Source: an uncultured Acetobacteraceae bacterium (GTDB taxonomy: Bacteria; Acidobacteriota; Terriglobia; Terriglobales; Acidobacteriaceae). From it: a stretch of 62,731 bases of DNA. Where the stretch lies: NCBI GenBank assembly GCA_964657465.1, contig CAZZVD010000002.1, forward strand, positions 1-62,731, given 5' to 3'. The position numbers and the translations under genes were made by a program. The notes under the pieces are model-generated. The model saw only the letters and a program-made list of their open reading frames with translations, did no database searches and was not told the DNA's origin. Below, piece after piece: positions 6,709-51,471 of this stretch. Within the stretch, counting starts at the first letter, position 1. Each line of letters begins with the position of its first letter.

Positions 6709-7277
6709 GAATTATTTGGGATCATCTGGGCTGTTTTCATCCGGAGGTTGTTCCCATATTGCTTCCGGGTCTTCGTCACTGGCACGAGCACCCGGTCTGG
6801 GGAAGTCCTTACGTCACTCGATTTGGAGTACGCCATGGCTTCCATCCTTCTTCTAGATGACGGCCTCAACCTCTGAGGTGTACGGTCGGCCTCTATTTTG
6901 TCCCGAGAGAGATGTGATAGACCTGACCTTCGAGATTTTTAAGATCTAAAGTCCACGGTGTATGTTGATGGTGGACGTAGTAAAAGGCTAGGGATGACGC
7001 AACGAGTATCGACAGGGCTAACCCAAGCGGCCCGATCAACGGTGAAGCCGTAATGCCCACGAATACGCTCCTCATCTGCCTTGTACCTTAACGGCGCGAG
7101 AGCATCGTACTGAGGGGCGTCGGGTGTAGAAGATAAACTCGCGAAGGGGGCTGCGGGTGCTGAAAGGGCACGCTTCAACTCTCGGCATCTAGCCAAGCGC
7201 ACCTGTTGCTTCCGCTGTGACCAAATGATCGCCATGCAAACAAATAGGATTTAGAGTATTCGAGGAGGTCGAAAAAT

Positions 7278-7853: not shown

Positions 7854-8417
7854 TCATGGTTGCTTTTGGACGGTGCCTGCGATGTAACTGGTAAAGCGTT
7901 GTGACGTCGCGGCTTGCGCAATCTGAAAATCGATGGCTAATCGACCGTTGGCCTGCTGGGCATAGGTGAAACGGAAGCGTGGAAAGCCGGCGGCGCCTTC
8001 CGTCGAAGTCATCACGACTTTAGCCGGAGATGAGCTGACCGACACGTTGAAGGTCAGAAAATGGCCCTCATTGTCAAATAGATCGGCGCGCTGCTTAAGT
8101 CCGTACAAATAGACGTACACGATGCTGCGGTAAGTAAATTCAGGCTTTCCCGCTTGCGCGGCGAACTGTTGCTGACTGGTAAACACAAGGACTTTGCCGT
8201 CCAGATCTTGTTTGAAGGTAAACTGTCCGGGACCCTCGCCGGCGAACCCTTTGCCGGTGCCCCCCCAGGTGCCCATGAGGAATTGCCAGTCCCGCCATTG
8301 ATACATGCGATCGCGCGCCGTACGGTAAGACAGATCCTGGGCGTCTACCTTTGGGTGCGGTGCCTGGGCCGGACATGCCATTGCAACCAGCAGTGCAGCA
8401 AGAGTAATCCGTTTCAT
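7854..8417 (-). CDS. Secreted hypothetical protein (paralog of 49963-50490)
   Basis: Signal peptide MKRITLAALLVAMACPAQA. Aligns along its length with the 49963-50490 product (GTWGG../GHWFA.., FDNEGH/FDNEGN, GRLAIDFQI/GKLAIKFEM). Starts 24 nt after the upstream gene's stop. Confidence 0.7.
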   Translation of the reverse strand: MKRITLAALLVAMACPAQAPHPKVDAQDLSYRTARDRMYQWRDWQFLMGTWGGTGKGFAGEGPGQFTFKQDLDGKVLVFTSQQQFAAQAGKPEFTYRSIVYVYLYGLKQRADLFDNEGHFLTFNVSVSSSPAKVVMTSTEGAAGFPRFRFTYAQQANGRLAIDFQIAQAATSQRFTSYIAGTVQKQP

Positions 8418-8441: not shown

Positions 8442-9731
8442 TCACAGATCCAGGGTCGTAGAGTTGCGGTTGGGCAGTGTGCCTCGCTCATACGCTCGCT
8501 GGACGGTAGCGATCGATTCTGGTGTGTAGCGGCCGCTCAGTTTCGAACTCATGTCCGGCCGAGTGCGATACACGATTTCCTCAAGGTCCAGCAGGTGGCT
8601 GTGAAACGCAGCGGATAGGTCTTCAGCATGGCTGATCGCCGTTTCTCGGGCGATGTGTCGCGGGCCCAGGCTGGTGTGGGCGATCTCTGCAAACGACTGA
8701 AGTTGATGCTTTTTTAGCAGGGACGCGACCATTAGGTTTTTGCGGTCATTATGAATCTGTTGCGGTTCGTTAAAGGGGAAAAACATGTGGTAATTATGGC
8801 GATCACCGGTCACCGTGCGATAGGTGAGCATGGGAGTATCCGTCTCGCGTGCGGCGCGGACCAGATGCTTTTGGACAAAAAGCTCGAATTCCGGAACTGT
8901 CGGCATGTTCACATTCATCGATAGCTTTCGCCAGTAAGCACCGAAGCGAAAATAGCGCCTCTTGTTGAGAGGCGGCGCGTTGGTCACCTGGTCCCGATAG
9001 GCCAGGATTTTATCTGCCGCGGGCACGATGTATTTGTGGACGAAATCTTCAAACTCTGGCTCCACCCCCGGTTGCACGTAGAGATAAACAACGCGAAGAT
9101 ATCGTCCCAGATCATAGGGAACCTTCCCCGTCTCAGTCGCCGTCGCGCCGGTGTAGGACAACTCGGGCGCCACCAGGGCCACCGTTTTAGATTCCCCGAA
9201 CTGCATACCGTAGAGGTGTTTAAAGCGTTGCCATGATTCCGAAGCAGGGTCGAGTTCGTCGTCTCCCTTGTCCAGAGCCCACTGCACGCGCAGGGGCATG
9301 ATTTCGCTGTCGAGCTGATCGCCCAGGTTTTCAAAAGGAAACAACAGCGTGTACAAGTTGTCGCGCGCGGAGTCGCCGGTTTGATCTCTCAGGTAGCCTG
9401 CATTTGGGTTGTACTCCGACAGCTCGAGTTCGCAATCATCGAATGCATGATTGTGCAGATCGTAAGACATCTTGTGTGGGGCGGCGCCCGGAGGGCCAGG
9501 CTTGACCGCAGGAGGTTTGGGCTTTGTGAATCGTCTTTGCGCGGTAAGCCCAAACTGGGCTTGAACCGCTCCTCACGAGCCGCCGTCAGCCAGTTGCCGG
9601 AGCCGCGGCATAAGGTCCGAATTCGGACTGGGTACTGCCTTCTGTTTCTCAGGAACACTCTGACCCATTAGTCGGGAGGTTCCATATCCTAGAGCCGTCG
9701 TCGCAAGATGTAGAAAGGTTCGCCGTTTCAT
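8442..9731 (-). CDS. Candidate TAT-exported selenoprotein, uncharacterised family (in-frame UGA at 9573-9575 = codon 53); paralog of 36144-37430
   Basis: The ORF track splits it into 9573-9791 (MKRRTFLHL... twin-arginine signal) and 8442-9470. Both are in the same frame with no other stop between them. The sequence after the TGA (GAVQAQFGL) is conserved with the paralog. A SECIS-like hairpin lies 10 nt downstream. The gene lies directly downstream of selC-selA-selB. The conservative alternative is two separate ORFs. Confidence 0.6.
9541..9569 (-). promoter_or_regulatory. SECIS-like stem-loop downstream of the in-frame UGA
   Basis: Minus-strand reading: UGA-gga-GCGGT-tc-AAGCCCA-guu-UGGGCUU-ACCGC. 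The 17-nt upper hairpin (9546-9562) starts 10 nt after the UGA and has G-U in the apical loop. The lower stem has a 2-nt bulge. Confidence 0.55.
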
Positions 9732-9845: not shown

Positions 9846-11774
9846 CTAAAGCACGAGACGCGAGTCACCATCGCGGCGAGTAAGTTTTGACTTGTCCAGG
9901 AACTCCAGCAAAGGGATGGCGTGCTTACGGGTTAACCCGGTCAGGTTTTTAAATTGCTGAACGTTGAGTGCCTTGCCTCTATAGGGCGCCAGCAGTGTGG
10001 CTAACCCTGAAACCGAGTCGTGGTGTAGGAACAGCGTGCCGTCTACCGGGATAAGAAGCCGCTCGCGCAACAGCGACGTCACCAGGGGCCTCACCGTCTG
10101 AGGGTCGAGACAGAGTTCTCCCAGAACTTCGGGAATGGAGCGCGCTGCCAGGGGAGATTTTTTGAAGGCAGCTAAAATGCTCAGTTGGATTCGCTTCTCC
10201 GCTACGCTTGCACCCACATGGTAGCCTGCCGGCGCGAGGAGGTCACCGGACACCCGCAACTTCTTATCCTGCATACCCTGAGCGACGATCGCGCCGAAAA
10301 TCCCGGACGGCAGCTTACTACGATTGAGCAACTCTGCCTTTCGCACCGCTCCTTCGTGCGGCCGAGCCTTAAGCAGCTGGGCCAGGTGTTGATCGAAGTG
10401 TTCGATGGCTAAGTGGTAGTGCGAGCTGGTTATCAGGCATTCTCCGCCGATGAGCAGGAGCCGCTGTTTTTGGGTGAGCGACGGCAACAATCGCTGCTTT
10501 ATCTCCTCCCCGGTGAGCAGCATCTCGCGGCAGGCCATGGACAGTTCGAGCCCCTGCATGCCTCGCCTTGCAGCGCGTTCGACTAACTCATCCGCGGGAT
10601 CCTTGATCTCTTGTAACTGCCGCAGCCACTGGTAGTTGTGCAGCTTCTTGATGCCAGGTAAGGGTTGGGCTTCAATCACGATTCCACCCCCAATGGTTCC
10701 AACGGGCGACGGCTGCCGCAGCACAAAGCGGTCGCCGCGGGCAACCAGTATGGGGCTCATCAATTTCAATCTGGCGAGGCCGCGGCTTCCTGCCGTCAGG
10801 GAAGTCTGGCTGTAGAGATTGACCCGCGCCACCACGTCTGTCGCGAAGACGTGCAAGTGCACCATGCTGCGATGTTTGAGCGTGGTGGCTCCCGGCGAGA
10901 GCGAAAGCTCAACATCGATAAGGTCCAGGGCTGCGATGGAATGCGTGGATACTAAGGTGTCGCCGCGCCTTACCTGATCGCGCTCGACCCCGGAGAGATT
11001 GAGGGCGACCCTGGTGCGCGAAGCTACATGCTGTACATGGCTGGAGTGGACCTGGATATTTCTTACTCGTACCTCTTTCCCCGACGGCTCCAGCACCAGC
11101 GATTGCCCCCTCGTCAGCTGGCCTGAAACCAGCGTCCCGGTAACGACGGTGCCGGCGCCTGTTATCGAGAAGGAGCGATCGATGGGCAGGCGCGCCGGTT
11201 GCCCTAGCCCTTGCGAAGGCAGGCCATGGGCCACTTTGCGCAGCGCAGCCTTAAGCTCGTTCAGACCAGTCCGCTGCAGGCTGCTTACGTGCAGTATGGG
11301 GTTGTGACGGCAGTCGAGGAATGTTCCGGACAAGAATTCCTCCACGTTCGTGTGCACCGTCTCTAGCCGATCCGGGCTTACGGCGTCGATCTTGGTGAGG
11401 ACGGTGATGCCGCGATCGATGCCAAGCAGGCTGCAGATCTCAAGATGTTCGACAGTTTGGGGGCGTATGCCATCGTCTGCAGCGATGACCAGAAGCACAC
11501 AGTTGATGCCGCCTGCGCCGGCCAACATATTGCGCACGAATAACTTGTGGCCGGGCACATCGACGAAGCTAACGCGTAGCGGAGAGCCATCGTCGAGTGC
11601 GTCATCCAGGAAGGCAAACCCCAGATCGATGGTGATGCCGCGCGCCTTCTCTTCCCGATGGGTATCCGTGTCGATTCCAGTAAGCGCCTTCACCAAGCTG
11701 GTTTTGCCGTGGTCGATGTGGCCGGCGGTACCAACAACCAGGTAGGTTGGATCGGTTTGCTGATGATTGATCAT
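9846..11774 (-). CDS. selB: Selenocysteine-specific translation elongation factor SelB
   Basis: N-terminal GTPase motifs (GTAGHIDHGKTSL, DVPGH, TKID) followed by a long winged-helix C-terminal extension. ATGA overlap with selA. Confidence 0.9.
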   Translation of the reverse strand: MINHQQTDPTYLVVGTAGHIDHGKTSLVKALTGIDTDTHREEKARGITIDLGFAFLDDALDDGSPLRVSFVDVPGHKLFVRNMLAGAGGINCVLLVIAADDGIRPQTVEHLEICSLLGIDRGITVLTKIDAVSPDRLETVHTNVEEFLSGTFLDCRHNPILHVSSLQRTGLNELKAALRKVAHGLPSQGLGQPARLPIDRSFSITGAGTVVTGTLVSGQLTRGQSLVLEPSGKEVRVRNIQVHSSHVQHVASRTRVALNLSGVERDQVRRGDTLVSTHSIAALDLIDVELSLSPGATTLKHRSMVHLHVFATDVVARVNLYSQTSLTAGSRGLARLKLMSPILVARGDRFVLRQPSPVGTIGGGIVIEAQPLPGIKKLHNYQWLRQLQEIKDPADELVERAARRGMQGLELSMACREMLLTGEEIKQRLLPSLTQKQRLLLIGGECLITSSHYHLAIEHFDQHLAQLLKARPHEGAVRKAELLNRSKLPSGIFGAIVAQGMQDKKLRVSGDLLAPAGYHVGASVAEKRIQLSILAAFKKSPLAARSIPEVLGELCLDPQTVRPLVTSLLRERLLIPVDGTLFLHHDSVSGLATLLAPYRGKALNVQQFKNLTGLTRKHAIPLLEFLDKSKLTRRDGDSRLVL

Positions 11775-13249
11775 GAAACTGACCGCGCGAGACCGATGGG
11801 ATGGCTGTTACCGATGACGGTTTTCAAATGGTTGATCAGAAGAGCATCGGACTCCGGCGTTATGGTCCGGAGGTCCAGAGCTACTGAGCCCTTGTAAGTC
11901 CTTGAGACTACTGGTGGGTCGAGTGACCGCAAAGCAGACGCGAGCGCGCCCGCGGTCCATGTCGGGTGATCCACGATCAGCAGAACGGTTTCGAGAGTTG
12001 CCCCCGGAGTCGTTCCTCCTCCGATCAGACTCGTGTCCGGTTGCAAATAGATCGTTGCGCCGGTCGTGCTCAGCGAGTCCCTGATATTTTCGGCCCGTGC
12101 CTGTAATCGCCCCAGCGTCTGTTGCAACATCCGGCTGATGGGAATATCGGGAGTTTGAAAGTCGAGGTACTCCTGCAGCGTACTGTCCAGCGCGGCGTAC
12201 ACCATTTTATCGACGCGGAACGTACGCAGCATGGGGTTTTGGCGGATACTCTCTATGGAACGGGACTGGCCGACAACGATTCCACACTGGGGACCGCCCA
12301 GCAACTTATCGCCGCTGCACACCACGATATGTACGCCGGCTTTGAGGCCTTTGATCAAGGTGTCTTCCCCAGAGATGCCATAGTCCTCCAGAACCAGCAG
12401 GCAGCCAGTGCCCTGATCTTCAAAGAGAATCTTGCCGTGTTCCTTGCACAGGGCGGCCAGGTCGGCTGAGGAAGGTGATTCCACGAAGCCGGTCATGGTG
12501 AAATTGGCGGGATGCACCCGCAAGAGCAAAGCGGTCTCCTCGGTGATCGCCTTGGCGTAGTCAGAGGCGCGCGTGCGATTGGTCGTCCCCACCTCGCGCA
12601 GGATCGCGCCGGACTTCGCGAGGATGTCAGGAATACGGAATCCGCCGCCAATTTCCAGAAGTTCCCCACGGGAGACGATGGTTTCCTTGCCGTCGGAAAG
12701 AGAATTCAGGACCAGGAAAGTAGCCGCCGCACAGTTGTTCACGACGATGGCGCGATAATCCTCCAGGAAATCCTGCAGCGGCAGACCGGCATGTTGTGCG
12801 AGCACGCGAAGCACCAACTGTTCAACATGGTCGTCGCGTTTGCCTCGCTCGCCAGTTGCCAGGTTGAATTCGAGATTGCAATAGCCGCCGGCAACGCGGG
12901 CAACATTTTCGAGCGCCTTTGCGCTTAAAGGAGCACGGCCCAGGTTGGTATGCAGCAAAACTCCTGTGGCATTCAGTACTGGCACCAGGGATGGACGGTT
13001 CGCGTCGCGGATGTGGTCGTGAATGGTCTGAGAGAGCCTGGATAACTCGGTTTCGAATGTATCCTCCTGTACTTCTCCGGAGGCGATTCGCTGGCGTAAC
13101 AATTGCAAACAGTCCCGGATGACGCGAATCACGAGATGCCGGGGGAAGTTCTTCAGCAGAGGTTTCAATTCCTCTGATCTTGCCAGTTCATCGATTGAGG
13201 GCAACCGGTGATAACTCATGAAGGCCGTTTTAGAGAGCGGGTCAATCAC
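11771..13249 (-). CDS. selA: L-seryl-tRNA(Sec) selenium transferase SelA
   Basis: N-terminal LPSIDELA motif, PLP-enzyme core and length fit SelA. The start is placed at GTG 13249 (GAGGA RBS 4 nt upstream); ATG 13219 is an alternative. The 13378 start in the ORF track would run through the tRNA-Sec gene. Confidence 0.85.
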   Translation of the reverse strand: MIDPLSKTAFMSYHRLPSIDELARSEELKPLLKNFPRHLVIRVIRDCLQLLRQRIASGEVQEDTFETELSRLSQTIHDHIRDANRPSLVPVLNATGVLLHTNLGRAPLSAKALENVARVAGGYCNLEFNLATGERGKRDDHVEQLVLRVLAQHAGLPLQDFLEDYRAIVVNNCAAATFLVLNSLSDGKETIVSRGELLEIGGGFRIPDILAKSGAILREVGTTNRTRASDYAKAITEETALLLRVHPANFTMTGFVESPSSADLAALCKEHGKILFEDQGTGCLLVLEDYGISGEDTLIKGLKAGVHIVVCSGDKLLGGPQCGIVVGQSRSIESIRQNPMLRTFRVDKMVYAALDSTLQEYLDFQTPDIPISRMLQQTLGRLQARAENIRDSLSTTGATIYLQPDTSLIGGGTTPGATLETVLLIVDHPTWTAGALASALRSLDPPVVSRTYKGSVALDLRTITPESDALLINHLKTVIGNSHPIGLARSVS

Positions 13250-13302
13250 GGCGTCCTCGATAATCAGGTTCTGGCATGTCGATGGTATAGAGGCAAGGGG
13301 CC

Positions 13303-13396
13303 TGGCGGAAGCGCGTGCGAGTCGAACACACCGTCGCCCGTAGGGACGACCACCGGTTTTGAAGACCGGGAGGATCACCGGAGCCTAAGCGCTTCC
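13303..13396 (-). tRNA. selC: tRNA-Sec (anticodon UCA)
   Basis: Minus strand: GGAAGCGC...CGGTCTTCAAAACCG...GTCGTCC-CTAC-GGGCGAC...GTGTG-TTCGACT-CGCAC-GCGCTTCC-G-CCA. It has an 8-bp acceptor stem, a 5-bp T stem, a 7-bp variable arm and a UCA anticodon. It closely parallels E. coli selC. Confidence 0.9.
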
Positions 13397-13468: not shown

Positions 13469-13918
13469 CTACACGGGATGGTGGGCGCCAGGGTGTGGAA
13501 CAATCTGGCAAAGCAGACGGGCTGCGCAATGAACATGACTTTCTACCTGAAACTCTCCGGAAATCTGGGCCGCGTAGTTGCGCAAGCCCAAAATCGTCGC
13601 TGTAATGGTTGCGCGATCGCCGGGCACGGGTGAGCCTGCGAAGCTGACCGATTCAATGGCTACCATGACCATCAAGCCGCCTTCTCTCGGAAGTGTCATG
13701 GTTGCCGATAACAGGACAGCACCTGCCTGGCCGATCGACTCCAGCATAAGCATTTCGGGTAATTCTCCTCCTCCACCGCAGTCACTAAAGGCCACATTCT
13801 TCAAAGCTGAAATACTCACACCGCGCTCTATCTGCAGGACCTTGTCTAGAAAAAGAAATGGATAGCGATGAGGGAGACTTTGAAGACTGATGGCGAAGCT
13901 GGAGGGAGAGCCGGCCAT
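13469..13918 (-). CDS. FabZ/FabA-like hotdog-fold protein (atypical active-site region)
   Basis: LPHRYPFLFLDKV and LESIGQAG motifs of 3-hydroxyacyl-ACP dehydratases are present. The GHFP histidine block is replaced by FSDCGGGGELP. The start was chosen to give FabZ-like length; longer starts at 13954 and 14098 are possible. Confidence 0.65.
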   Translation of the reverse strand: MAGSPSSFAISLQSLPHRYPFLFLDKVLQIERGVSISALKNVAFSDCGGGGELPEMLMLESIGQAGAVLLSATMTLPREGGLMVMVAIESVSFAGSPVPGDRATITATILGLRNYAAQISGEFQVESHVHCAARLLCQIVPHPGAHHPV

Positions 13919-14090
13919 GAAGTCATCGTCACTGTCTCCTGCGGTCGCAGTCATTAAATGCCCCAGACCGAGAGCATAGACCAGAAAAAGCGCACAGTGC
14001 TGGTCCGAAGTACAGTTGTCGCATAATCGCGTGTCCATTCTGCTAGAGCCTCGGGAGAACTCGGCGCCCTCAAAAGGTTGACTTCCACAA

Positions 14091-15533
14091 ATGCGCATTT
14101 TGCTTATACGGCCGCCTACCGAAACGTTTATTGTCTCGCCTCCGATCGGCCTGGGCTACCTGGCCACAGCACTTCGCTGTGCAGGACATCACCCGGAGAT
14201 ACTCGATTGCACGCTGACTTCGATGACGGCCAAGCAATTTGGCGAGTTTTTAGCGACGACGCCGCCGTTTCAGGTTTATGGCTTCCAGACTTATTCGTGT
14301 GAAGTAGATGTCGTGGAAAGCTGCCTGAAGGAGATAAAGCGGAGAGTTCCGAATGCGGTCACTGTGATTGGCGGCCCTCATCCTTCTGGTGGGCAGGAGT
14401 GCATGTTTGAGCTACCAGACGTGGATTTTGCGTTTCAGGGTGAGGCGGAGTTCGGCTTGCCGTTATTTTGCGACTTACTGGAAGCCGGTGACTCTCCAGA
14501 CCTGAGCCGGGTTCCTGGTCTTTTGTGGCGCGACGGCAATTGTGTTCGGGCCAATCCGAAGCACGCTGAAGCGGACCTTGATAAATTGGGGTTTCCCGCC
14601 TGGGATCTTATCGATCCGCGCAAATACCCAGTGGCTCCCCACGGAGGATTTGCTCGCTATTTTCCGGTTGCGCCTTTCATCATCTCGCGAGGCTGTCCGT
14701 ATTCTTGCACCTTCTGCGGAACGAAAAACGTGACCGGCATGAAAATGCGTTATCGCTCGATGGAGCACGTGATCGAGGAAATCCGCATGCTCCAGAACGC
14801 TTACGGGGTACGCGAATTGCATATTGAGGATGACAATTTCTCTGCTGTACGAAAAGAGATGAAAAAGTTTTGCAACAAGCTGATCGATGAGCAGGTGAAT
14901 ATTGCCTGGTATTGCACGAGCGGGCTGCGCCTCGACCTGATCGACGAGGAGCTGGCAATGCTGATGAAGAAGTCGGGTTGCTACACGGCAACGATTGCGA
15001 TCGAATCGGCGTCGCAGGCGACATTGAACCATATGAAAAAGAATCTCGACCTGGCCAAGGTTCCCGGCCAGGTCAGGTTATTGCGAAACGCCGGGCTCAC
15101 TCTGAATGCGCTTTTTATCCTCGGTTATCCTACCGAGACGCGTGGAGACATGGAGAAAACCATTCGCTATGCGATGAGCCTAGATGTGCAGCGCGCCCAG
15201 TTCTCGAACTTTCTCCCAATCCGCGGCACCGAGGCCTACGAATTTGTGAAGCAGCGGGGAGAAATCGAGGGTCTCGAACAGCGAAAGTTGCACACCGCGG
15301 ACAACCCGTACAGCCCACCCGGCATGACAACCTCAGAGCTGAAGTGGTTGCAGCGAAAAGGGTTTTTGTTTTTTCATCTGCGGCCAAGAATTCTTTGGGG
15401 TACGCTCACTAGCATCCGCTCCTTCTCGCAACTGTCATTCCTGCGGAAGAGATTGATCGAGTATTTGATTGGTCGAAAAAGAACGGGTGAACCCGGGATG
15501 CGAGAGAAAAACATCCTGGTCGAAGTCGTCTGA
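14091..15533 (+). CDS. B12-binding-domain radical SAM enzyme (class B type)
   Basis: N-terminal Rossmann-like B12-binding block (MRILLIRPP...PIGLGYLAT) and a CPYSCTFC (CX3CX2C) radical SAM cluster motif. Confidence 0.85.
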   Translation: MRILLIRPPTETFIVSPPIGLGYLATALRCAGHHPEILDCTLTSMTAKQFGEFLATTPPFQVYGFQTYSCEVDVVESCLKEIKRRVPNAVTVIGGPHPSGGQECMFELPDVDFAFQGEAEFGLPLFCDLLEAGDSPDLSRVPGLLWRDGNCVRANPKHAEADLDKLGFPAWDLIDPRKYPVAPHGGFARYFPVAPFIISRGCPYSCTFCGTKNVTGMKMRYRSMEHVIEEIRMLQNAYGVRELHIEDDNFSAVRKEMKKFCNKLIDEQVNIAWYCTSGLRLDLIDEELAMLMKKSGCYTATIAIESASQATLNHMKKNLDLAKVPGQVRLLRNAGLTLNALFILGYPTETRGDMEKTIRYAMSLDVQRAQFSNFLPIRGTEAYEFVKQRGEIEGLEQRKLHTADNPYSPPGMTTSELKWLQRKGFLFFHLRPRILWGTLTSIRSFSQLSFLRKRLIEYLIGRKRTGEPGMREKNILVEVV

Positions 15534-15578
15534 AGTGTTTCACTACCCCGGGCAGTAACCTGCATAACCTTCAATAGC

Positions 15579-17531
15579 TTGATGGAGAGAGTGATGTCTA
15601 TCTTGAAGCGCAATTTGCTGTGTTTTTTTACCGTGATCCTTTGGTGCCTGCCTTTCCATGCTCAGATAGTCAGGCACCTGCAGTATGCGGGTCTTTCGGG
15701 CGCGCGCTCAGCAGCCGCGGGTGAAACGACGTTGCCGGCGCGGGAACCGGACGCCAAGCTGAGTGCTTACCTGCATCGTTCGCTGGCAAAAGCTCCCGCG
15801 TCTTCGTTTGTACCCGGCAATCGTGTGGTGGGACCTGCCGCAGAGGCGATGAGTGCCCGCACTGCGCCCGCAAAGGATCCCGTGGCCCTGACGGTAAAAG
15901 GCGGCGGCCACGAATTGCGCGAGAGCTTCGACGGCCTGAATTATTATCAGCAACGAAACGCGAATGATGGAAACCAGTATGCCATCGAGCCGACCGATCC
16001 TGGACTGTGTGCCGGGAATGGCTTCGTGCTGGAAACCGTGAACGAAATACTGCGCGTGTTCGATACGCATGGTAACCCGGTCGCGGCTCCCCTGGATGTC
16101 TACACCTTTTACGGGTACCCACCTGCCATCAACCGTACCACGGGCGCATTCGGGCCGTCGATCACGGACGAACATTGTTTTTACGATAAATCGAGCCGGC
16201 GGTGGTTTCATATTGCCCATACTCTCGACCGGGATCCGTTGACCAACGGTATACCAGGCACGAACCACCTTGATCTGGCCGTCAGCCGGAGCGATGATCC
16301 TACTGGTAGCTGGAGTATTTACAAACTGCCGGTTCAGGACGACGGGACGGATGGAACCCCCAACCACGCTTGCCAGTACGGCCCATGTTTTGGGGACTTT
16401 CCCCAGATAGCTGTCGACAAAAACGGCATTTACATAACCACCAATGAATTTGCATTCTTTGGCCCCGGCTTTCATGGATCGCAGATCTATGCACTTTCAA
16501 AAAAACAGTTGATTGACGGCGAGTCAGATCCAACAGTGGTGCAATTCGACACCGCTGATGCTGCTTATCTCTTCGAGGGGAACCCGGGCTACTCCGTGCA
16601 GCCTGCCCTGGACTTTGCCCAGGACTCTCCCGGTGGACGGCACGGCACCGAATTTCTGCTGAGCAACCTTGCCGGCTTTAACACCGTCGATGACCGGCTA
16701 CAGATCTGGAGCCTGAAAAATACGGAGTCGCTGGCGGGGCACTCCCCGCAGCTAAGCCTCAAGATGGGCACAGTTACGGTGAAGAGCTATTCATCTCCAC
16801 CCGACTCAGTGCAGAAGCCAGGACCTTTTCCGCTAGGACAATGTATCAACGACACGACCCTGCCAACGCCTTACGGCGCAGGATGCTGGCGGAATCTACT
16901 ATTGGGGGCGGAACCCGCGCATAATGAGACCCTCTACAACCTTCCCAGCAACGATGGACGTATGACCGAAGTAGTCATATCCAACGGCAAGCTGTGGGGT
17001 TCTTTCGATACCACGGTTACAATTGCCGGCCAGCCAGTCGCTGGACTGCAGTATTTCGCCCTTTGGCCCTGGGTCAACAGTTCGGGACCGGGGGCGAAGG
17101 TATTGTTGAGCTCGAATATCGGCGTCAAGGGGAACAACCTGACGTATCCTTCCATCGCTGCGACCCCCTGGGGCAGGGCAGTTATCGCATACACCCTGAT
17201 TGGCCCGGACTATTACCCCGCTTCGGCTTACACAATGCTTGATGTTTTTGGAGAATGCGATAAGACGGTGCGCGTTGCTGCAGCCGGCAAGGGCCCACAA
17301 GATGGATTTGAAGGCTACGCAGCTTTTGGCAGCTCGCCGCGATGGGGCACCTACAGCTCGGCGCTTCTGGATGGCGACTCGTTCTGGATTAACACTGAAT
17401 ACATAGGGCAGTCCTGCACCTTGGCGGAGTACGCTTCCGATCCGCCTGCCAGTTTGAGCTGCGGTAAATCTCGAGCAACCCTTGCAAACTGGGGCACAAG
17501 GATCAGTCGGATTTCCCCCAATGTCTGGTAG
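15579..17531 (+). CDS. Secreted hypothetical protein, 650 aa
   Basis: Signal peptide (LLCFFTVILWCLPFHAQ). Long uninterrupted ORF with genome-typical composition. I recognise no family. Confidence 0.7.
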   Translation: MMERVMSILKRNLLCFFTVILWCLPFHAQIVRHLQYAGLSGARSAAAGETTLPAREPDAKLSAYLHRSLAKAPASSFVPGNRVVGPAAEAMSARTAPAKDPVALTVKGGGHELRESFDGLNYYQQRNANDGNQYAIEPTDPGLCAGNGFVLETVNEILRVFDTHGNPVAAPLDVYTFYGYPPAINRTTGAFGPSITDEHCFYDKSSRRWFHIAHTLDRDPLTNGIPGTNHLDLAVSRSDDPTGSWSIYKLPVQDDGTDGTPNHACQYGPCFGDFPQIAVDKNGIYITTNEFAFFGPGFHGSQIYALSKKQLIDGESDPTVVQFDTADAAYLFEGNPGYSVQPALDFAQDSPGGRHGTEFLLSNLAGFNTVDDRLQIWSLKNTESLAGHSPQLSLKMGTVTVKSYSSPPDSVQKPGPFPLGQCINDTTLPTPYGAGCWRNLLLGAEPAHNETLYNLPSNDGRMTEVVISNGKLWGSFDTTVTIAGQPVAGLQYFALWPWVNSSGPGAKVLLSSNIGVKGNNLTYPSIAATPWGRAVIAYTLIGPDYYPASAYTMLDVFGECDKTVRVAAAGKGPQDGFEGYAAFGSSPRWGTYSSALLDGDSFWINTEYIGQSCTLAEYASDPPASLSCGKSRATLANWGTRISRISPNVW

Positions 17532-17726: not shown

Positions 17727-19142
17727 TTGGCGGTCGCCATCAGCTGCACCGTGCACGGGCTTGAGGATGAGGGAATTCGGTGTGGTGACCTGGTACTGAT
17801 TGCGCTCCCGGATTCTATCCAATTCGTCACTGTGTTTTTGGCATGTATGAAGCTCGGAGCGATTGCCGTTCCGGTGAGTAACTACCATCGAGAGGATGAG
17901 TACCTCCAAATTCTCGGGCATCTTCAACCAAAGCTGATCCTGGCGGAACAAAGCAACCAGGCGGTAACGTTGGCAGCGGTGAGACACCAGGGTGCCCGAT
18001 TAGTATCGCTTTCCGTCGATGCTGAAGAGTACGATTCCTGGGATAGCTGGCAGACGGGGCCGAAGTCTCTGCGAGGTTCAACTGCTGCAGAAGACCAAGT
18101 AAGTTTTCTTCTGTGGACATCGGGAACGACGGGGCATGCAATACCTGTTCCGCACAAGAAGTCGGATTGGCTTATTTGTTGCAGCAACTATGGCGAAAAG
18201 ATCCTAGGAATGTCGCGTCATGACACCTTTCTCTCCACGTCGCGGATGTATCACGCCTATGGACTAGGCAACAGCTTGTTTTTCCCGCTCTATGCGGGCG
18301 CGCGCAGCATTTTAATTACAGAACGACCAGTACCGCGTGGATCTTTGCAGCTTGCGCAGAAAATGAAAGTGACGCTTTTGTTTTCAGTGCCTACGTTTTT
18401 CAGTTTGATGTTGCGTTGTAGCGAAAAGGACCACTCCTTGCAATTGCCGCAACTCCGGCTGGCTATTTCCGCGGCAGAACCGCTCGCTCCCCGGATCTAT
18501 AACGAGTGGCCGCAGCGGTTTGGCGGAGAAATTCTGGATGGCATGGGTTCGACGGAAGCACTGCACATCTACCTTTCCGCTCGGCCCGGCGCACATCGGC
18601 CAGGCAGCGTAGGCAGGTTGGTAGAAGGATATCAAGCGCAGATTCGAGACGCGGAGGAAATGGATGCTCAGCGCACGGTTGGCAATCTTTGGCTGAAGGG
18701 CCCGAGCCTGGCCGAGAAGTATTGGAAGAATGACGAAGCGACCGAGCGTCATATGCGTGGGGGCTGGTTCGATACAGGCGATAAGTGTTCTGTAGACGAG
18801 GATGGCTATTACTACTTTCATGGCAGATCCGATTCGATGTTCCGCATCTCCGGACAGTGGGTTTCCGCGGTAGAAGTAGAAGCCGCCCTGTCCGGGGTGG
18901 AAGGCGTCAGGGAACTGGCGATTGGTATGTGCCTGGACGAAGAGGGTCTATCGAAGCTGTGCCTGTATATGGTTCTCGACGCAACGACAGAATCAACTAC
19001 GCCCGTAATTGAAAGTCTGAAGCTAGCTGCTTCAGAGCGGCTTCCTGTTAGGAAACGACCAATTCGCTTTCAAGTGTTGGCGGAGTTGCCGCGCACCGCA
19101 TCGGGGAAAATTCAGCGGCACCGCTTGCAGTTAAAGGCGTAG
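17727..19142 (+). CDS. AMP-dependent synthetase/ligase (aryl-acid/benzoate-CoA-ligase-like)
   Basis: Adenylate-forming motifs LLWTSGTTG, YGLGN, WFDTGD and GKIQR. The first canonical start is TTG 17727, but homologous N-terminal sequence continues upstream (see findings). Confidence 0.8.
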   Translation: MAVAISCTVHGLEDEGIRCGDLVLIALPDSIQFVTVFLACMKLGAIAVPVSNYHREDEYLQILGHLQPKLILAEQSNQAVTLAAVRHQGARLVSLSVDAEEYDSWDSWQTGPKSLRGSTAAEDQVSFLLWTSGTTGHAIPVPHKKSDWLICCSNYGEKILGMSRHDTFLSTSRMYHAYGLGNSLFFPLYAGARSILITERPVPRGSLQLAQKMKVTLLFSVPTFFSLMLRCSEKDHSLQLPQLRLAISAAEPLAPRIYNEWPQRFGGEILDGMGSTEALHIYLSARPGAHRPGSVGRLVEGYQAQIRDAEEMDAQRTVGNLWLKGPSLAEKYWKNDEATERHMRGGWFDTGDKCSVDEDGYYYFHGRSDSMFRISGQWVSAVEVEAALSGVEGVRELAIGMCLDEEGLSKLCLYMVLDATTESTTPVIESLKLAASERLPVRKRPIRFQVLAELPRTASGKIQRHRLQLKA

Positions 19143-19171: not shown

Positions 19172-20242
19172 ATGGCAACCAGCGAGACAGTCCGATTGAC
19201 GCAACACACCAAAAGCGGAGGTTGCGCCAGTAAATTGGCGCCGGGCTCCTTGCAGGCCGTGTTAGCCAAGCTGCCACGACAGAAAGACGACATGATGTTA
19301 GTCGGTTTCGATACTTCCGACGACGCCGGCGTCTACCAGATAAGCCCCGATCTGGCGCTTGTCAACACTGTGGATTTCTTCACGCCACTTATCGACGATC
19401 CGTACACATTCGGTCAGGTCGCGGCGACCAACGCGTTGAGCGATGTCTACGCGATGGGTGGAAGACCGATTACCGCGCTGGCGGTGGTTTGCTTTCCAGA
19501 AGACGGAGACTTCGATGTGCTTGCTCAGATTATGAAGGGCGGCCTGGCCAAGATGGCGGAGGCGGGTTGTGCCGTGGTTGGCGGGCATACAGTCCGGGAC
19601 GCCGAGGTGAAGTTCGGCTATGCGATCACAGGTTTGATTGACCCGGCGCGCGTGTTTACCAACTCAGGAGCGAAGCCCGGCGACAAATTGATTCTCACCA
19701 AGCCCATAGGCACAGGGGTCATCACTACAGCGTTGAAGCAGAATAAGGCGCAGGAGTCCTGGGTAGCCGCAGCGATCTCACAGATGACGAAACTGAATAA
19801 GCAAGCCTCGGATCTGATTGTCAAGGAGTCATTCGACGTCCATGCAGTCACAGACGTTACGGGCTTCGGCTTGATGGGGCACGCGCGTGAACTGGCCCGG
19901 GGCAGCGAGGTGAGCCTGGAGATTCAGGTCGAAGCCATACCGTTACTCGAAGGAGCACTGGAGGCAGTGCATCTTGGAGCGGTGCCCGCGGGACTGCTTG
20001 CCAACCGGGAATTTGCAGAGTGCATTGTTTCCTGCGGCCCTGCATCCGACATTGCCGAAGATCTGAAGACCCTTCTGTATGATCCGCAGACCTCGGGCGG
20101 GTTGTTGATTTCGCTTAGCGCGCAAAAAGCCGACGAGTTGGTGACCCGGTTGCACGCTCTTGGTATCTTTGCCGCGATGATCGGCCGGGTGCTTGACCCG
20201 CAAAAGACCCGGACGAGGTCAGGCGAGATTCGCTTGGTGTAG
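19172..20242 (+). CDS. selD: Selenide, water dikinase (selenophosphate synthetase) SelD, Cys form
   Basis: N-terminal SGGCASKL loop (Cys/Lys equivalent to E. coli C17/K20) and an AIR-synthase-like fold. GAGGAA RBS. Starts 29 nt after the ligase gene. Confidence 0.9.
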   Translation: MATSETVRLTQHTKSGGCASKLAPGSLQAVLAKLPRQKDDMMLVGFDTSDDAGVYQISPDLALVNTVDFFTPLIDDPYTFGQVAATNALSDVYAMGGRPITALAVVCFPEDGDFDVLAQIMKGGLAKMAEAGCAVVGGHTVRDAEVKFGYAITGLIDPARVFTNSGAKPGDKLILTKPIGTGVITTALKQNKAQESWVAAAISQMTKLNKQASDLIVKESFDVHAVTDVTGFGLMGHARELARGSEVSLEIQVEAIPLLEGALEAVHLGAVPAGLLANREFAECIVSCGPASDIAEDLKTLLYDPQTSGGLLISLSAQKADELVTRLHALGIFAAMIGRVLDPQKTRTRSGEIRLV

Positions 20243-25617: not shown

Positions 25618-26664
25618 CTATTGGATCGTAGCTTTGCCGGGTTGATCCCAAAGAAGATGAAGGTCGGTATCGATGTATGTTTCCAGTCCCCGCGCTTGCT
25701 CTACGTAATGGATTAAATGCGCGTCATCCAAAGCGAGACGCTCATCGAGTCTTGCGTAACCGGGATAGTGCTGGCCGCCGATGCGCCACCATTCCCGTGC
25801 ACCGCGCAATAGCGAGGCACGCTGGCTGGAACTTACGCTGGTGTCGGCAGCCTTGACATAGCTGTCGCCGAGGGCGGTGTAGGCCTCCGCAAATATGCCC
25901 AGCCCCTGATCGCGAACCGAAGGTGCTTCGGAAAGGGCAATGCAGCGTTTGAGATCAGCGATGGCCAGAGGTAGCTTGCCGGCGAGGGACGGCCAATAAA
26001 GATAGTTCAACCCTCGTCCGTATAGGGCGCCAACCATATTGGGATTTTCCTGGATGGCCTGCGACAGGCGCTCGATCGAGAGGGAGGAAAGGCGTGCTTT
26101 TTGCTCCCGTCCTCCTTCGCGAATCATCAGGTCCACATACGAAAGGCCAAGCTGAAGATTCAATGCAGCGGATGCATCTGCGCGGGTCAGGTCGATGAAG
26201 GTCTTCACCGGCATGGCGGTTGCGGGATCGTTGTCCGCGGGGGCATCCTCAGTCAGGGCCAGTTGCTGTACGGTGCCGGTGGAATTTTGAGCAAGTCCGG
26301 CGAGCGGAGACGGTAGCGCTTCGGGTGAGATAGCGAACTGCTTCTGGAGGATGGTCAGAAACCGTATCCCCTGACGGTACTGGTTGCCTACACATAAGTC
26401 GTCGGGCTTGCTTGCGAGTTTGCGCCGCAGATCCTCCACGGTGTCTTTGAGATGGGCGAGGTCGTGATCGGGGCGCAGATCGCCGCAGGAAGACGATCCG
26501 ATCAGGACGCCTAGTCCCGCCGCATCCGGATAATTGGTAATCGCCGGCAAGGTCAGGATTTTTTGCTGTAATTGGCTTGGACGCCAGTAGAACAGGTAAG
26601 AGCCTGCGCCGAGAAAGAAGCACGCCAGGAGTGCCGCGGTCGTTCCGATGACCCGTCGTTTCAT
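25618..26664 (-). CDS. Membrane-anchored hypothetical protein (helical-repeat-like C-terminal domain)
   Basis: The start is at ATG 26664 (GAGG RBS, MKRRVIGTTAALLACFFLGAG TM anchor). The upstream 330 codons of the 679-aa ORF in the track overlap the DUF1702 gene in another frame and are discounted. Confidence 0.6.
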   Translation of the reverse strand: MKRRVIGTTAALLACFFLGAGSYLFYWRPSQLQQKILTLPAITNYPDAAGLGVLIGSSSCGDLRPDHDLAHLKDTVEDLRRKLASKPDDLCVGNQYRQGIRFLTILQKQFAISPEALPSPLAGLAQNSTGTVQQLALTEDAPADNDPATAMPVKTFIDLTRADASAALNLQLGLSYVDLMIREGGREQKARLSSLSIERLSQAIQENPNMVGALYGRGLNYLYWPSLAGKLPLAIADLKRCIALSEAPSVRDQGLGIFAEAYTALGDSYVKAADTSVSSSQRASLLRGAREWWRIGGQHYPGYARLDERLALDDAHLIHYVEQARGLETYIDTDLHLLWDQPGKATIQ

Positions 26665-26680
26665 ATGCATCCTCGCTTTT

Positions 26681-27700
26681 TCATCGTGTATAGGCTGGAG
26701 CGGCTTCATCCAGCAAAGGAGCCCGTTGCCATGCAAGCTCCGGTATGGCAGTGTTCCGCAGAGCCTCGCGCCATTCCATGTAAGTATGTCCCTGATCCCA
26801 AAGGGAGTCATAGAGCTCGCCGGCCCGGTGCGCACCTTCGAGCAGAGCAGGTTGTTGCTGCAATGACAGGGTTTCGCTAAGAAAGGAATGGTTGGTGTAG
26901 GAGCGGGCGAATAAGCCGATGAAGAGGCCCGTCGCGAAATCGCCCTTGTATTGTGTTTCGAGGGATTCCAGCTGTATGAGTGCGGCGTTCGCGTCCCGGC
27001 AACCAGCAAATCCGGCTGCAATACCGTAGCCCGTAGCCAAATCGACGGCATGCTCCGGAGCCAGGTCCCGGGCCATGGAGCTGAAATCAATTGCCGCCGG
27101 AAGAATAAACCATAGCGCCCTTCCGACACCTTCATAGTAGCCTTTCCGCTGTGCGGTGCCCCAATCGCCACGAGGCCGCATCGAGCGGCCCATACGGAAG
27201 CCGAAGATGGTTTGGGCAAAACCAAAGCCATCGAGCCACAGTGAGTCGAGCCGCGGATCAGGCAGGCTGCCGCGTTGGGTGGGGAGGCTTGGACGCAGGC
27301 GAGCCATGCCTGCGGCAAAGCCCAAGCCGATGGTAAGCAGAAAGTGATGGTTTTGATGGCGTTGCCAAAAAGTGGCGAGCGACTCGCGCTTGCGAAACGG
27401 GTCGATTTGTTGCCGCAGATACATCCCGCTGCAAATTCCCTCAAGGGTAAATGGACGTGAGAACGCGCTGCAATCGTCGGCCAATTGGTTAATGCGTGGT
27501 GTTTCGCGAAAAATCCCGGCGGCGAGCCCGCGTAAGAAATAGCCAACAACCTCACACCGCACACGCATCGCCGTTCGATCTTTGCCAAAGCCCAGCAGAA
27601 TGCGCGGATCAAAGTGCTCGAGCAGGTAAGGTGCAATGAAAAACCAGAGCGCGGCACCGATCACGATGAAAGCAGGAAGTAAAACGACTGGCCAACTCAA
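26681..27700 (-). CDS. DUF1702-family protein (enediyne-cassette E3/UnbL-like)
   Basis: Blocks DPRLDSLWLDGFGFAQ and YYEGVGRALWF match my recollection of the DUF1702 consensus. A TTG start at 27700 overlaps the upstream KS stop (TTGA); ATG 27730 is the alternative. Confidence 0.6.
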   Translation of the reverse strand: MSWPVVLLPAFIVIGAALWFFIAPYLLEHFDPRILLGFGKDRTAMRVRCEVVGYFLRGLAAGIFRETPRINQLADDCSAFSRPFTLEGICSGMYLRQQIDPFRKRESLATFWQRHQNHHFLLTIGLGFAAGMARLRPSLPTQRGSLPDPRLDSLWLDGFGFAQTIFGFRMGRSMRPRGDWGTAQRKGYYEGVGRALWFILPAAIDFSSMARDLAPEHAVDLATGYGIAAGFAGCRDANAALIQLESLETQYKGDFATGLFIGLFARSYTNHSFLSETLSLQQQPALLEGAHRAGELYDSLWDQGHTYMEWREALRNTAIPELAWQRAPLLDEAAPAYTR

Positions 27701-28980
27701 CGGGACGCCCCCTTTTGTCGAAAGACGCACGATGCATGAAAGCCTCCGAAGCCGGTAGATGCCTTGACCCAGGTTCTGATCCGCGTTTTGGTGTGTTGGG
27801 TCACTGGACGCAGAGACAGGCGTGGATCAGGCTCTTCGCAGTTCAGGGTGGCTGGTACGATCCCTTGTTCGAGGGAGAGCAAAGTGAGAATGAGCTCGAG
27901 GATTGCGCTGCCGGCGAGTGTATGCCCGATATATGGTTTGAGCGCCGTCGCGAGGAGGAGGTCGAGATGCGCGCCAAACACCGATGCGATGGCGTCGCTT
28001 TCGTATTTATCCTGCAGAGGACTGGCAGCGCCATGGGGAACGATCAGGTCAATTTCCTCGGCAGAGCATTGGGCACGATCAAGCGAATCCTGCAAAGCCA
28101 TGGAGTAGTAGTTAGGGCGCATGCAGGGAACCGTCAACTTCCACGCGTCGCAGGCGAACGCTCCCGAAAGGTACTCGGTGTAGGGGGTGCGTCCGCGGGC
28201 AGTAGCGTGCTCCTGCGATTCGAGAAGCAGCGCGCCTGCGCCTTCGCCTAGCAGAAATCCATTTCGCCGCCGATCAAACGGGCGCATGATTGGGTCGCCC
28301 GTACAGGCTTTGGCGGCATTGAGCCACAGGTATCGGGTGACCTGTCGTGGGCTGTCGCCCCCGACTACAAGCATGGCATCCACATGCCCGCCGCGAATCC
28401 AGGCGGCCGCTGTTTCGAGCGCGAATAAGCCCGAAGCACAAGCATTGTTCACGATTTGAGCGGGCCCGTGGGCGCCGAGCAGCCTGGTGAGGCGCTGCAG
28501 CAGAACGAAGGAGTGAGTCTCGTACCCCGCATCCTGAATTGTTTGATACGTGTCAGTGATAAAACGGAGCGCGCTCTCCGGAGGCTTGGCGAAGGCGCCG
28601 GATATCGACTGCCAGATCTGGCTGGTGTACTCATCGAAGCCGGGATTCTCATGGGCCACGACCACACCGATCCGGGGCATGGAATCGGCGGACAGTCCAG
28701 CATCTTCGACGGCCAGTCGACAGGCCGCAAAGAAAAGAGCCAGGTTCCGGCCATTCCGGTTGTTGATGGCAGGGCTGGAAAACTCGCTGCCGATAACATG
28801 CAACAGTTGTTGATCGTCGACGGTAGCCAGCGTAAATTCGCCCAGGCTGAAGCCGTCCAGGGTCTCTCGATGCACGGCAAAATTCTGCCGGCGGGCTTCG
28901 ATTGAATGCCAGACATCTTCCTTGCCCACGCCAATCGAGGTGACGGGCCCGAGCCCGCTGATCACAATCTCTCGGCTCAA
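27697..28980 (-). CDS. Beta-ketoacyl-ACP synthase (KAS I/II-like, catalytically complete)
   Basis: Active-site Cys (NNACASG) and both His blocks (VPHGAAS, YIGHTLAGS). A TTG start at 28980 overlaps the upstream stop (TTGA) and gives the typical N-terminus SREIVISGLGPVTSIG. Confidence 0.85.
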   Translation of the reverse strand: MSREIVISGLGPVTSIGVGKEDVWHSIEARRQNFAVHRETLDGFSLGEFTLATVDDQQLLHVIGSEFSSPAINNRNGRNLALFFAACRLAVEDAGLSADSMPRIGVVVAHENPGFDEYTSQIWQSISGAFAKPPESALRFITDTYQTIQDAGYETHSFVLLQRLTRLLGAHGPAQIVNNACASGLFALETAAAWIRGGHVDAMLVVGGDSPRQVTRYLWLNAAKACTGDPIMRPFDRRRNGFLLGEGAGALLLESQEHATARGRTPYTEYLSGAFACDAWKLTVPCMRPNYYSMALQDSLDRAQCSAEEIDLIVPHGAASPLQDKYESDAIASVFGAHLDLLLATALKPYIGHTLAGSAILELILTLLSLEQGIVPATLNCEEPDPRLSLRPVTQHTKTRIRTWVKASTGFGGFHASCVFRQKGASR

Positions 28981-30170: not shown

Positions 30171-30172
30171 GG

Positions 30173-31336: not shown

Positions 31337-31350
31337 GGCGTGAATCCTTC

Positions 31351-31602
31351 CTAGTGAACCTCTATCGTGCTGATCTCGCGGATCAGCTCAATCACTGAGC
31401 GCGGAGACATCATCTCGGGAAGTCGGCTATCGGGTATCTCGATATGAAACTCGCGCTCCAATCGCATAATCAATTCCAGAGAAATGATTGAATCGATTCC
31501 GGACTCGTAGAACGACTGATCCATATCGATCTGGTTCTGCATCGTCACTTTGCGCAGAGTGGTCAAAACCCGTTCGTCGATCGTATCGGTATGCAATGGC
31601 AT
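31351..31602 (-). CDS. Acyl carrier protein
   Basis: 83 aa with a phosphopantetheine attachment motif GIDSI in the helix II context (ESGIDSIISLELIMRLE). Confidence 0.8.
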   Translation of the reverse strand: MPLHTDTIDERVLTTLRKVTMQNQIDMDQSFYESGIDSIISLELIMRLEREFHIEIPDSRLPEMMSPRSVIELIREISTIEVH

Positions 31603-31801
31603 TCTCCTTTGCGTCCTCAGCGGGTCGGCCGAGACAGGTGATCTCCGTCATAGTACACATGCTTTTTTGCGATTCTTCGGCTGCGCTCAATGTCAAAGAA
31701 GAATGACTGTGTCATAATCTCTTTGCGTTGAACGGCTTGGCGCTTTTTGGGACAGGTAGAAGCTGTCCCAATGCTGTCCTTATAGCTGACCCTTAGTACA
31801 G

Positions 31802-51468: not shown

Positions 51469-51471
51469 TTG

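Follow-up and report, generated by a model that had tools for sequence, protein, structure and literature searches.

An uncultured member of the Acidobacteriaceae carries, within the 62,731-nt stretch of DNA analysed here (contig CAZZVD010000002.1 of assembly GCA_964657465.1; hereafter the window), two genes that are each interrupted by an in-frame TGA codon, with a 17-nt hairpin beginning 10 nt after both. This arrangement raises the question of whether these codons terminate translation or are decoded, and what the hairpins contribute to the outcome. The answer favoured here is that both hairpins are bacterial selenocysteine insertion sequence (SECIS) elements, which specify the in-frame UGA as selenocysteine (Sec) in two paralogous proteins, a reading to which a probability of about 0.9 is assigned on computational grounds. 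Firstly, the machinery for Sec synthesis and insertion is encoded beside gene 1. Secondly, the register between UGA and hairpin is fixed throughout the homologues. Thirdly, the bases of the stem covary. Fourthly, synonymous sites are frozen inside the hairpin only. Fifthly, the stem has decayed in the homologues that lack Sec. The placement of both hairpins had been recognised in a sequence-only reading of the window and proved correct, with the first locus lying on the minus strand.

Two genes with an internal UGA

Gene 1 lies on the minus strand (8442-9731) and comprises 429 codons when read through its TGA (9573-9575), which would encode Sec53 in the context DGGS-U-GAVQAQFGL and is kept in all Sec-type homologues; in its product, an RR-type signal peptide is followed by Sec, a beta-strand predicted to be ordered, a linker and then the conserved alpha+beta domain. 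Gene 2 lies on the plus strand (36144-37430) and has 428 codons when read through the TGA at 36339-36341, in the context SSGGS-U-SANSAQFGL. Both TGAs are in frame with long open reading frames (ORFs) on each side, and the read-through products are paralogues. The upstream ORFs, of 52 codons in gene 1 and 65 in gene 2, encode an MKRR-x-FL start, a hydrophobic stretch and a linker with GGS at its end, while the downstream frames remain open for a further 376 and 362 codons respectively, and encode a conserved domain of about 340 residues.

The 17-nt hairpin RNA (AAGCCCAGUUUGGGCUU) follows the first TGA after a 10-nt spacer (9572-9563). On this strand, its 5' arm is AAGCCCA (9562-9556), its loop GUU (9555-9553, with the G and U at 9555-9554) and its 3' arm UGGGCUU (9552-9546), such that the element occupies 9546-9562 and contains a conserved 6-bp core at 9547-9561. 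The second hairpin (36352-36368, plus strand) is CAGCCCA-GUU-UGGGCUG, again after a 10-nt spacer (36342-36351). The structure of the first locus was recovered by RNAfold, with a free energy of -16.9 kcal/mol over 35 nt (z = -3.98), which was equalled by one of 200 shuffled sequences. The core motif CCCRGTNYGGG matches the window four times, against an expectation of 0.5, and none of 100 shuffles reached this count. The two further matches, at 6791 and 51741, were dismissed, as neither has a TGA at the correct distance. The resemblance of the two hairpins to one another is inherited, because the loci are paralogous.

The family is rare. A search of 5.8 billion proteins found only 42 clusters, which are all without a Pfam domain or a functional name (those named being 'hypothetical protein'), while a profile search of 1.84 billion representative proteins returned 12 matches, among them distant relatives (P0043-P0048) without the Sec region. 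A scan of genome contigs found two loci, both in one metagenome-assembled genome (MAG). The sequences come from soil metagenomes and MAGs of Acidobacteriota, among them Candidatus Sulfotelmatobacter, to which the sole NCBI-named entry belongs ('hypothetical protein WBX38_14490 [Candidatus Sulfotelmatobacter sp.]'). In total, 34 loci were retrieved (L001-L034), from which 26 distinct Sec-type genes were aligned. Every Sec-type locus with enough upstream DNA encodes the RR-type signal, the linker, the in-frame TGA and the motif xxxQ-[A/S]-[Q/R]-[F/S/Y]-G-[L/I/V/M]. In all 26 aligned homologues the in-frame TGA is followed by 10 nt and then the hairpin, and the alignment is free of gaps between 12 nt upstream and 47 nt downstream of the TGA. 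Across the 312 kb comprising the window and the loci, the motif of TGA, 10 nt and hairpin occurs 35 times, always at family genes.

The alternative that survives best, although itself very improbable, is that the UGAs are real stops, dividing two genes or marking a pseudogene, or else are read through or reassigned without Sec, with the hairpin acting as a pause, coupling or stability element. Every gene caller splits these genes, and 40 of the 42 database entries (P0001-P0039 and P0041) contain the C-terminal ORF only, beginning at internal ATG, GTG or TTG codons 30-70 codons past the TGA; one lineage even has two TGAs in tandem. Moreover, 14 of the 30 long ORFs in the window, among them selA and gene 1, end in TGA, which makes it the most frequent of the ordinary stops. 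However, this last observation cuts both ways: it led to genome-wide reassignment of UGA being rejected, and since TGA ends translation in the usual way elsewhere, the decoding of the two internal TGAs has to rely on local context of the kind that a SECIS element provides. The division into two genes is also difficult to reconcile with their content, as the upstream ORF encodes a signal peptide and linker only, and the downstream ORF has no signal peptide of its own. The conserved QAQFGL, RDF and WNPNxGY motifs come after the TGA but ahead of any possible restart codon, the first of which lies 67 codons past the TGA in gene 2. The downstream part cannot be a separate gene, because this restart codon lies beyond conserved residues. 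Furthermore, the TGA is retained in 26 of 26 genes in which synonymous sites are saturated, the full-length homologues without Sec are single continuous ORFs, and selC, selA, selB and selD are adjacent. Rather than defining gene boundaries, the 40 truncated entries indicate that gene callers stopped at the TGA, leaving entries from which Sec, the signal peptide and the first conserved strand are all missing. The reading of these codons as Sec therefore corrects a systematic annotation error affecting almost the whole of the family.

Constraint on the RNA beyond the peptide

A second alternative, less probable again, is that the hairpin is a by-product of the conserved Q-A-Q-F-G-L peptide combined with codon bias, with no function as RNA, and that decoding of the UGA depends on something else. 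The peptide is conserved even in the homologues without Sec, and the 13 residues after Sec (GAVQAQFGLTAQR; 9534-9572, minus strand) are predicted to form an ordered beta-strand, with a mean predicted local distance difference test score (pLDDT) of about 90 over the first ten, before a disordered linker of about 35 residues. As the hairpin codes for this predicted strand, the region would be under two constraints, one from the RNA stem and the other from the beta-strand. Hairpin 2 being thermodynamically unremarkable also accords with such a by-product. The decisive test is whether conservation exceeds what coding demands, and that of the hairpin does.

This excess is clearest in the choice of codons, which is the strongest evidence available, because it separates constraint on the RNA from constraint on the peptide. 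The third base is invariant in only three of the 344 aligned codon columns, and these are the hairpin codons at positions +5 (GCC/TCC), +6 (CAG/CGG) and +8 (GGG). For the glycine of the hairpin, all 26 genes use GGG, a codon that accounts for only 18% of the Gly codons elsewhere in them. Each of the 39 other invariant columns of amino acids with at least four codons uses between three and six of them, with no codon exceeding 73%. The phenylalanine codon switches between TTT and TTC in step with the change between CAG and CGG on the other side of the stem (6/6 and 17/17). Conversely, pairing has been kept despite amino acid changes, from A to S, L to I, V or M, Q to R, and F to S or Y. The G and U of the loop (alignment columns 33 and 34) are invariant in all 26 sequences, while the third loop base may be U, C or A, converting Phe to Ser or Tyr; this variation changes the residue, and therefore it is the nucleotides, not that amino acid, that are constrained.

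The pattern of pairing across the alignment is consistent with this conclusion. Bases are paired in 96.2% of cells, compared with 85.5% when columns are shuffled, and in none of 500 shuffles was pairing as high. Within the 6-bp core, all 156 cells are paired, and the stem is uninterrupted in every sequence. When the 3' partner is slid by a single column, pairing falls to 48-62% and no double change is left. Variation on both sides is seen at three of the seven pairs. The pair between columns 28 and 40, the third, is G-C in 17 sequences, U-A in eight and U-G in one; the loop-closing seventh pair, between columns 32 and 36, is A-U in 20 and G-C in six, and is never broken; and the outer pair is A-U in 17, C-G in two and unpaired in seven, such that a pair beyond the 6-bp core is formed in 19 of 26. 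When independent events were counted on a neighbour-joining tree of the protein domains, separate changes from A-U to G-C at the loop-closing pair were found in three lineages or more, and two origins were found for the outer C-G pair. Two core pairs thus show compensatory changes, one of them recurrently.

Not every detail of that reading extends to the family. It had emphasised the compensatory change of the outer pair, from A-U at the first locus to C-G at the second, which is as described between the two loci: on the 5' side, CAA (Gln) is replaced by TCA (Ser), and on the 3' side CTT by CTG, synonymously for Leu. Across the family, though, this is the least conserved of the seven pairs, and the best covariation is at pairs 3 and 7. 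Similarly, the proposed extension of the first hairpin (9541-9569, minus strand) by a lower stem of GCGGU (9569-9565) and ACCGC (9545-9541), below a 2-nt UC bulge, is present in the minimum free energy (MFE) fold of that locus but is peculiar to it; the RNAalifold consensus retains only the 6-bp core, and the family alignment provides no support for the lower stem as a shared feature.

The remaining comparison is with homologues that have no UGA to decode. The only full-length examples, P0040 and P0042, are encoded at L019 (6001-7251) and L020 (2868-4136) respectively, each as one continuous ORF with GAC (Asp) at the Sec position. Both retain the peptide TQFGL, encoded as ACC CAG/CAA TTT GGC CTT, and this choice of codons puts a C-C mismatch in the stem; the loop of L020 has also lost its G. 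SECIS-like remnants have been reported in non-Sec homologues of other selenoproteins (PMC1794560, Fig. 4), and the degraded hairpins at the homologous position in L019 and L020 resemble these, although the replacing residue is Asp rather than Cys. The sequence-only reading had named orthologues that keep the peptide while breaking the pairing as the observation that would count against a SECIS element. Broken stems were found only in these two homologues without Sec, and the result favours the SECIS reading, as it supports pairing persisting only where a UGA needs decoding. Between them, the evidence from codons, covariation and the non-Sec homologues already largely refutes the by-product explanation. 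The weakest alternative, scarcely credible, is that the hairpin is a transcriptional or regulatory element within the coding sequence, be it an intrinsic terminator, attenuator, RNase site or protein-binding operator: the stem-loop is GC-rich, and its reverse complement can also fold, but no T-run follows the stem, a terminator or promoter was rejected as no such site coincides with either hairpin, and the fixed 10-nt distance from the UGA and invariant GU of the loop would be left unexplained.

Decoding machinery and relation to known SECIS elements

The machinery for decoding Sec is encoded alongside gene 1. Directly upstream of it, on the minus strand, are the genes for tRNA-Sec (selC, 13307-13396), which has the anticodon UCA and was identified both by ARAGORN and as Rfam RF01852 (71.7 bits); Sec synthase (selA, 11771-13300; TIGR00474, 495.5 bits); and SelB (9846-11774; TIGR00475, 334 bits), which has C-terminal winged-helix mRNA-binding domains (PF09107). 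The ORF called for selA, starting from a GTG at 13378, overlaps the tRNA-Sec gene, and therefore the real start must lie further downstream. The set is completed within about 10 kb by selD on the plus strand (19172-20242; TIGR00476, 379 bits), encoding a selenophosphate synthetase of the Cys type (GGCASK). The gene preceding selD, at 17727-19142, encodes a benzoate-CoA-ligase-like protein. On one further contig, selB is again near a family gene, and this selenoprotein family may be the main client of the Sec machinery in this genome.

The C-terminus of SelB aligns with the SECIS-binding winged-helix domains of SelB from Moorella thermoacetica (1LVA/1WSU; E = 3e-16). Structures of the latter with SECIS RNA are available (PDB 1WSU, 2UWM and 2PLY), and the alignment extends over WH2-WH4, with the terminal motif of the protein encoded in the window (TRKHAIPLLEFLDKSKLTRRDGDSRLV) being closely similar; this comparison is one of sequence similarity only.

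The element can be compared with the bacterial SECIS (bSECIS) consensus of the bSECISearch model of Zhang and Gladyshev (PMC13188914, Fig. 2A), in which the loop is 3-9 nt and the upper stem 4-16 bp, a G is found at the first or second loop position and is usually followed by G or U, the UGA is 16-37 nt from the loop, and the MFE is at most -7.5 kcal/mol. All 26 family elements are located within the ORF, just 3' of the in-frame Sec-UGA, and have a 3-nt loop opened by GU, a stem of 6-7 bp and a UGA-to-loop spacing of 17 nt. The UGA and the following 47 nt fold with MFEs between -11.6 and -21.7 kcal/mol in these 26 sequences, and tRNA-Sec, SelA, SelB and SelD are all present, as Sec decoding requires. 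The element is nevertheless at the compact extreme of the model, as its loop is the smallest allowed and its spacing exceeds the lower limit by one, and the family has no conserved lower helix extending back to the UGA. A bSECIS-style scan of the whole window, in which flanking in-frame ORFs were a further criterion, identified only these two loci and one off-frame match, at a TGA at 29050 on the minus strand (6-bp stem, 8-nt loop, 29-nt spacing, -9.5 kcal/mol); this lies in the wrong frame inside a ketoacyl-synthase ORF (28977-30200), and is probably a false positive.

The sequence-only reading had gone further, describing the hairpin as corresponding to the minimal SECIS of Escherichia coli fdhF. 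That element is a 17-nt upper stem-loop (nt 15-31) located 11 nt from the UGA, with a bulged U17 and with G23 and U24 being essential (PMC8659212, citing Liu et al. 1998). The correspondence stands for size and placement, as the family hairpin is also 17 nt in length, starting 10 nt past the UGA, with its conserved 15-nt core 11 nt past it. Both also have GU in the apical loop, and SelB as the presumed reader. It does not stand for the details. The fdhF loop is a GGUC tetraloop, whereas that of the family is a GUN triloop, closed by an A-U or G-C pair; as this closing pair covaries, it is a real pair. No bulged U is present in any of the 26 sequences. The GU is at +23/+24 in fdhF and at +21/+22 here, 2 nt nearer the UGA, and the stem sequences are unrelated. 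The relationship is therefore one of analogy rather than identity, and the element belongs not to the fdhF type but to the general bSECIS class, of which it is a compact representative.

Assembling these components suggests how decoding would proceed, most probably by the canonical mechanism. With the UGA in the ribosomal A site, the stem-loop 10-11 nt downstream would sit at the mRNA entrance, where its apical G and U would be bound by the last, C-terminal winged-helix domain of the SelB encoded by the neighbouring gene. The complex of SelB, GTP and Sec-tRNA(Sec) would then be tethered to the ribosome and outcompete RF2, such that Sec would be inserted. The ribosome would subsequently melt the hairpin and translate it as Gln-Ala/Ser-Gln/Arg-Phe-Gly-Leu/Ile. 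The expected products are two paralogues of about 430 residues, each with an RR-type signal peptide, a flexible linker and a single Sec. Both the binding of SelB to these hairpins and the insertion of Sec are inferred.

Several observations weigh against the SECIS reading. In the thermodynamic comparisons, hairpin 2 folds (RNAfold) at -11.2 kcal/mol (z = -1.06), and is no stabler than shuffled sequence; hence thermodynamics alone are insufficient to carry the claim. Across the family, the bare 17-nt hairpin folds at between -6.1 and -10.4 kcal/mol, and in five of the 26 sequences it is weaker than the -7.5 kcal/mol of the consensus. The hairpins match no Rfam family: at the gathering threshold, tRNA-Sec and a tRNA were the only matches in the whole window, and around the two hairpins nothing relevant, and no SECIS family of any kind, was found at E <= 10, although the missing match says nothing against a SECIS element. 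In the covariation, the change from G-C to U-A at pair 3 is confined to a single clade, and therefore counts as one event. As the QFGL peptide is itself conserved, and its strand predicted to be structured, part of the nucleotide conservation is due to coding. Finally, the sampling of the family is limited: it is small, with all sequences coming from one bacterial lineage; just two homologues without Sec are known, and these are closely related to each other; and the homologues with Cys in place of Sec that usually support the identification of selenoproteins are absent.

The RNA element is thus of a known kind, with a textbook mechanism. Its value lies instead in what it marks. In addition, the 26 aligned sequences, without indels and with saturated synonymous sites, form an exceptionally clean natural data set revealing the constraints on SECIS elements in a lineage distant from E. 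coli. In this lineage, the constrained nucleotides are the 6-bp core and the G and U of the triloop, 17 nt from the UGA. Such data should help both to broaden bSECIS search models and to design minimal SECIS elements.

The selenoprotein family and its neighbourhood

By comparison with the RNA element, it is the selenoprotein family that appears new. When the full-length paralogues were queried with U replaced by C, neither matched any Pfam or NCBIfam family at E <= 0.1. A catalogue of prokaryotic selenoproteins lists 119 families and subfamilies with their Pfam, NCBIfam, cd or PTHR identifiers (PMC13188914, Table 1), while BSepDB contains 111 prokaryotic selenoprotein families (PMC13326102). 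As the catalogue is keyed by such identifiers, and the family matches no Pfam or NCBIfam entry, it appears to be uncatalogued. It resembles the catalogued families in having a single Sec near the mature N-terminus, a canonical bSECIS and genes close to the Sec machinery, but differs in lacking a thioredoxin-like fold, a UxxC or CxxU motif and a Cys homologue. No Cys-containing homologue was found among the 42 clusters from 5.8 billion proteins, nor among the profile-search matches from 1.84 billion. Homology-based selenoprotein finders depend on Cys/Sec pairs, a limitation that has been stated explicitly (PMC12013277), and this family was missed by them because it has no Cys homologues. Hence it adds a selenoprotein family beyond the reach of such pipelines.

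The AlphaFold models of the two paralogues are confident, with pLDDT of 83.8 and 85.2, and consist of tandem beta-alpha-beta units. Neither model had a match in the PDB at E <= 1e-3 when searched with Foldseek; the weak top matches, with template modelling (TM) scores of about 0.2, were to ABM and dimeric alpha+beta-barrel proteins, chlorite dismutase and sulfur oxygenase reductase, and no fold family or function is assigned from them. In these models, Sec lies just before a short strand that is predicted to dock onto the conserved alpha+beta domain. At the N-terminus, M-K/N-R-R-x-F/L-L/I is visible in all homologues, which can be compared with the twin-arginine signal, made up of S/T-R-R-x-F-L-K, an h-region and AxA. 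The TIGR01409 model of the twin-arginine translocation (Tat) signal scored 16.0 and 15.5 bits against two homologues, just below its cut-off of 16.7, and did not match the N-termini of the two proteins in the window. The signal peptide nevertheless resembles one of the Tat type, and the proteins may be secreted by this RR-type signal, probably through the Tat system.

The replacement of Sec by Asp, rather than by Cys, is unusual among selenoprotein families. It may be speculated that a residue exchanged only for Asp, and never for Cys, is more in keeping with a ligand of a metal or cofactor than with a redox residue of the thiol type; considered with this replacement, the HNYH and FHSH motifs, which are conserved, would suggest a ligand role too. 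The exchange for Asp and the linkage to the Sec machinery also provide leads on the use of selenium in an abundant soil phylum.

The family can be divided into two subtypes by motif and neighbouring genes. In type A, which includes gene 1, the DGGS-U-G motif is present, and the selenoprotein gene is followed by one or two copies of a gene for a secreted protein of 180-190 residues. In the window, this partner is a gene for a 187-aa secreted protein at 7854-8417 on the minus strand, with homologues immediately downstream of the selenoprotein gene in at least 17 loci; it has no confident family assignment, the Pfam and NCBIfam searches yielding only a weak, sub-threshold THAP4/nitrobindin-like match (E = 0.005). 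In type B, which includes gene 2, the linker is rich in Thr and Pro, and a gene for a protein of 280-344 residues is found upstream, often together with one for a B12-binding radical SAM enzyme. Both are present in the window: the type-B partner (35119-36147, plus strand) encodes 342 aa without a Pfam or NCBIfam family, and is preceded by a B12-binding radical SAM gene at 33550-35106. The two homologues with Asp in place of Sec, at L019 and L020, keep the same upstream partner gene, as well as nearby Cupin_2, GyrI-like and FGE-sulfatase genes.

Beyond these partners, the same genes recur around the family in the window and on other contigs, comprising three ketoacyl synthases, an acyl carrier protein (ACP), DUF1702, FG-GAP/ASPIC and RnfD-like proteins, together with Cupin_2, GerE, GyrI-like, FGE-sulfatase and MacB-type ABC exporter genes. 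In the window, a gene cluster around the selenoprotein genes is distributed over 13469-17531, 25618-35106 and 50515-53634, and it is also found at L025-L030. It contains the three ketoacyl synthases, a FabA-like protein, two or three B12-binding radical SAM enzymes, a PMT_2 glycosyltransferase-like protein, and FG-GAP/UnbV_ASPIC and RnfD-like proteins, and in other contigs is accompanied by ACP, DUF1702, methyltransferases and a fatty-acid desaturase. This cluster looks like one of the lipid or polyketide modification type. On balance, it seems reasonably probable that these genes represent an undescribed selenoprotein family of soil Acidobacteriota: secreted, with an alpha+beta domain that has no significant match, and with a single Sec that is replaced only by Asp, occurring as two subtypes that each have a partner gene in a lipid- or polyketide-like cluster, and encoded beside selC, selA, selB and selD.

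One type-B lineage departs from the single UGA, having tandem in-frame TGA TGA codons in the context TSGS-U-U-SAQQAQFGL (L032, 2994-2999; L033, 2195-2200; L034, 615-620). The sequence is identical in three separate assemblies. A 'UU' motif is absent from the catalogue of 119 families (PMC13188914), and a literature search on this family or on bacterial decoding of tandem UGAs found nothing relevant. The lineage has a single hairpin, which is 10 nt past the second TGA and 13 nt past the first, and the downstream ORF of 374 codons is intact. The tandem could correspond to two adjacent Sec residues decoded from one SECIS element, or to a recent nonsense mutation of TCA to TGA. If the former is true, then a UGA-UGA pair preceding a single SECIS would imply the insertion of two adjacent selenocysteines by one element.

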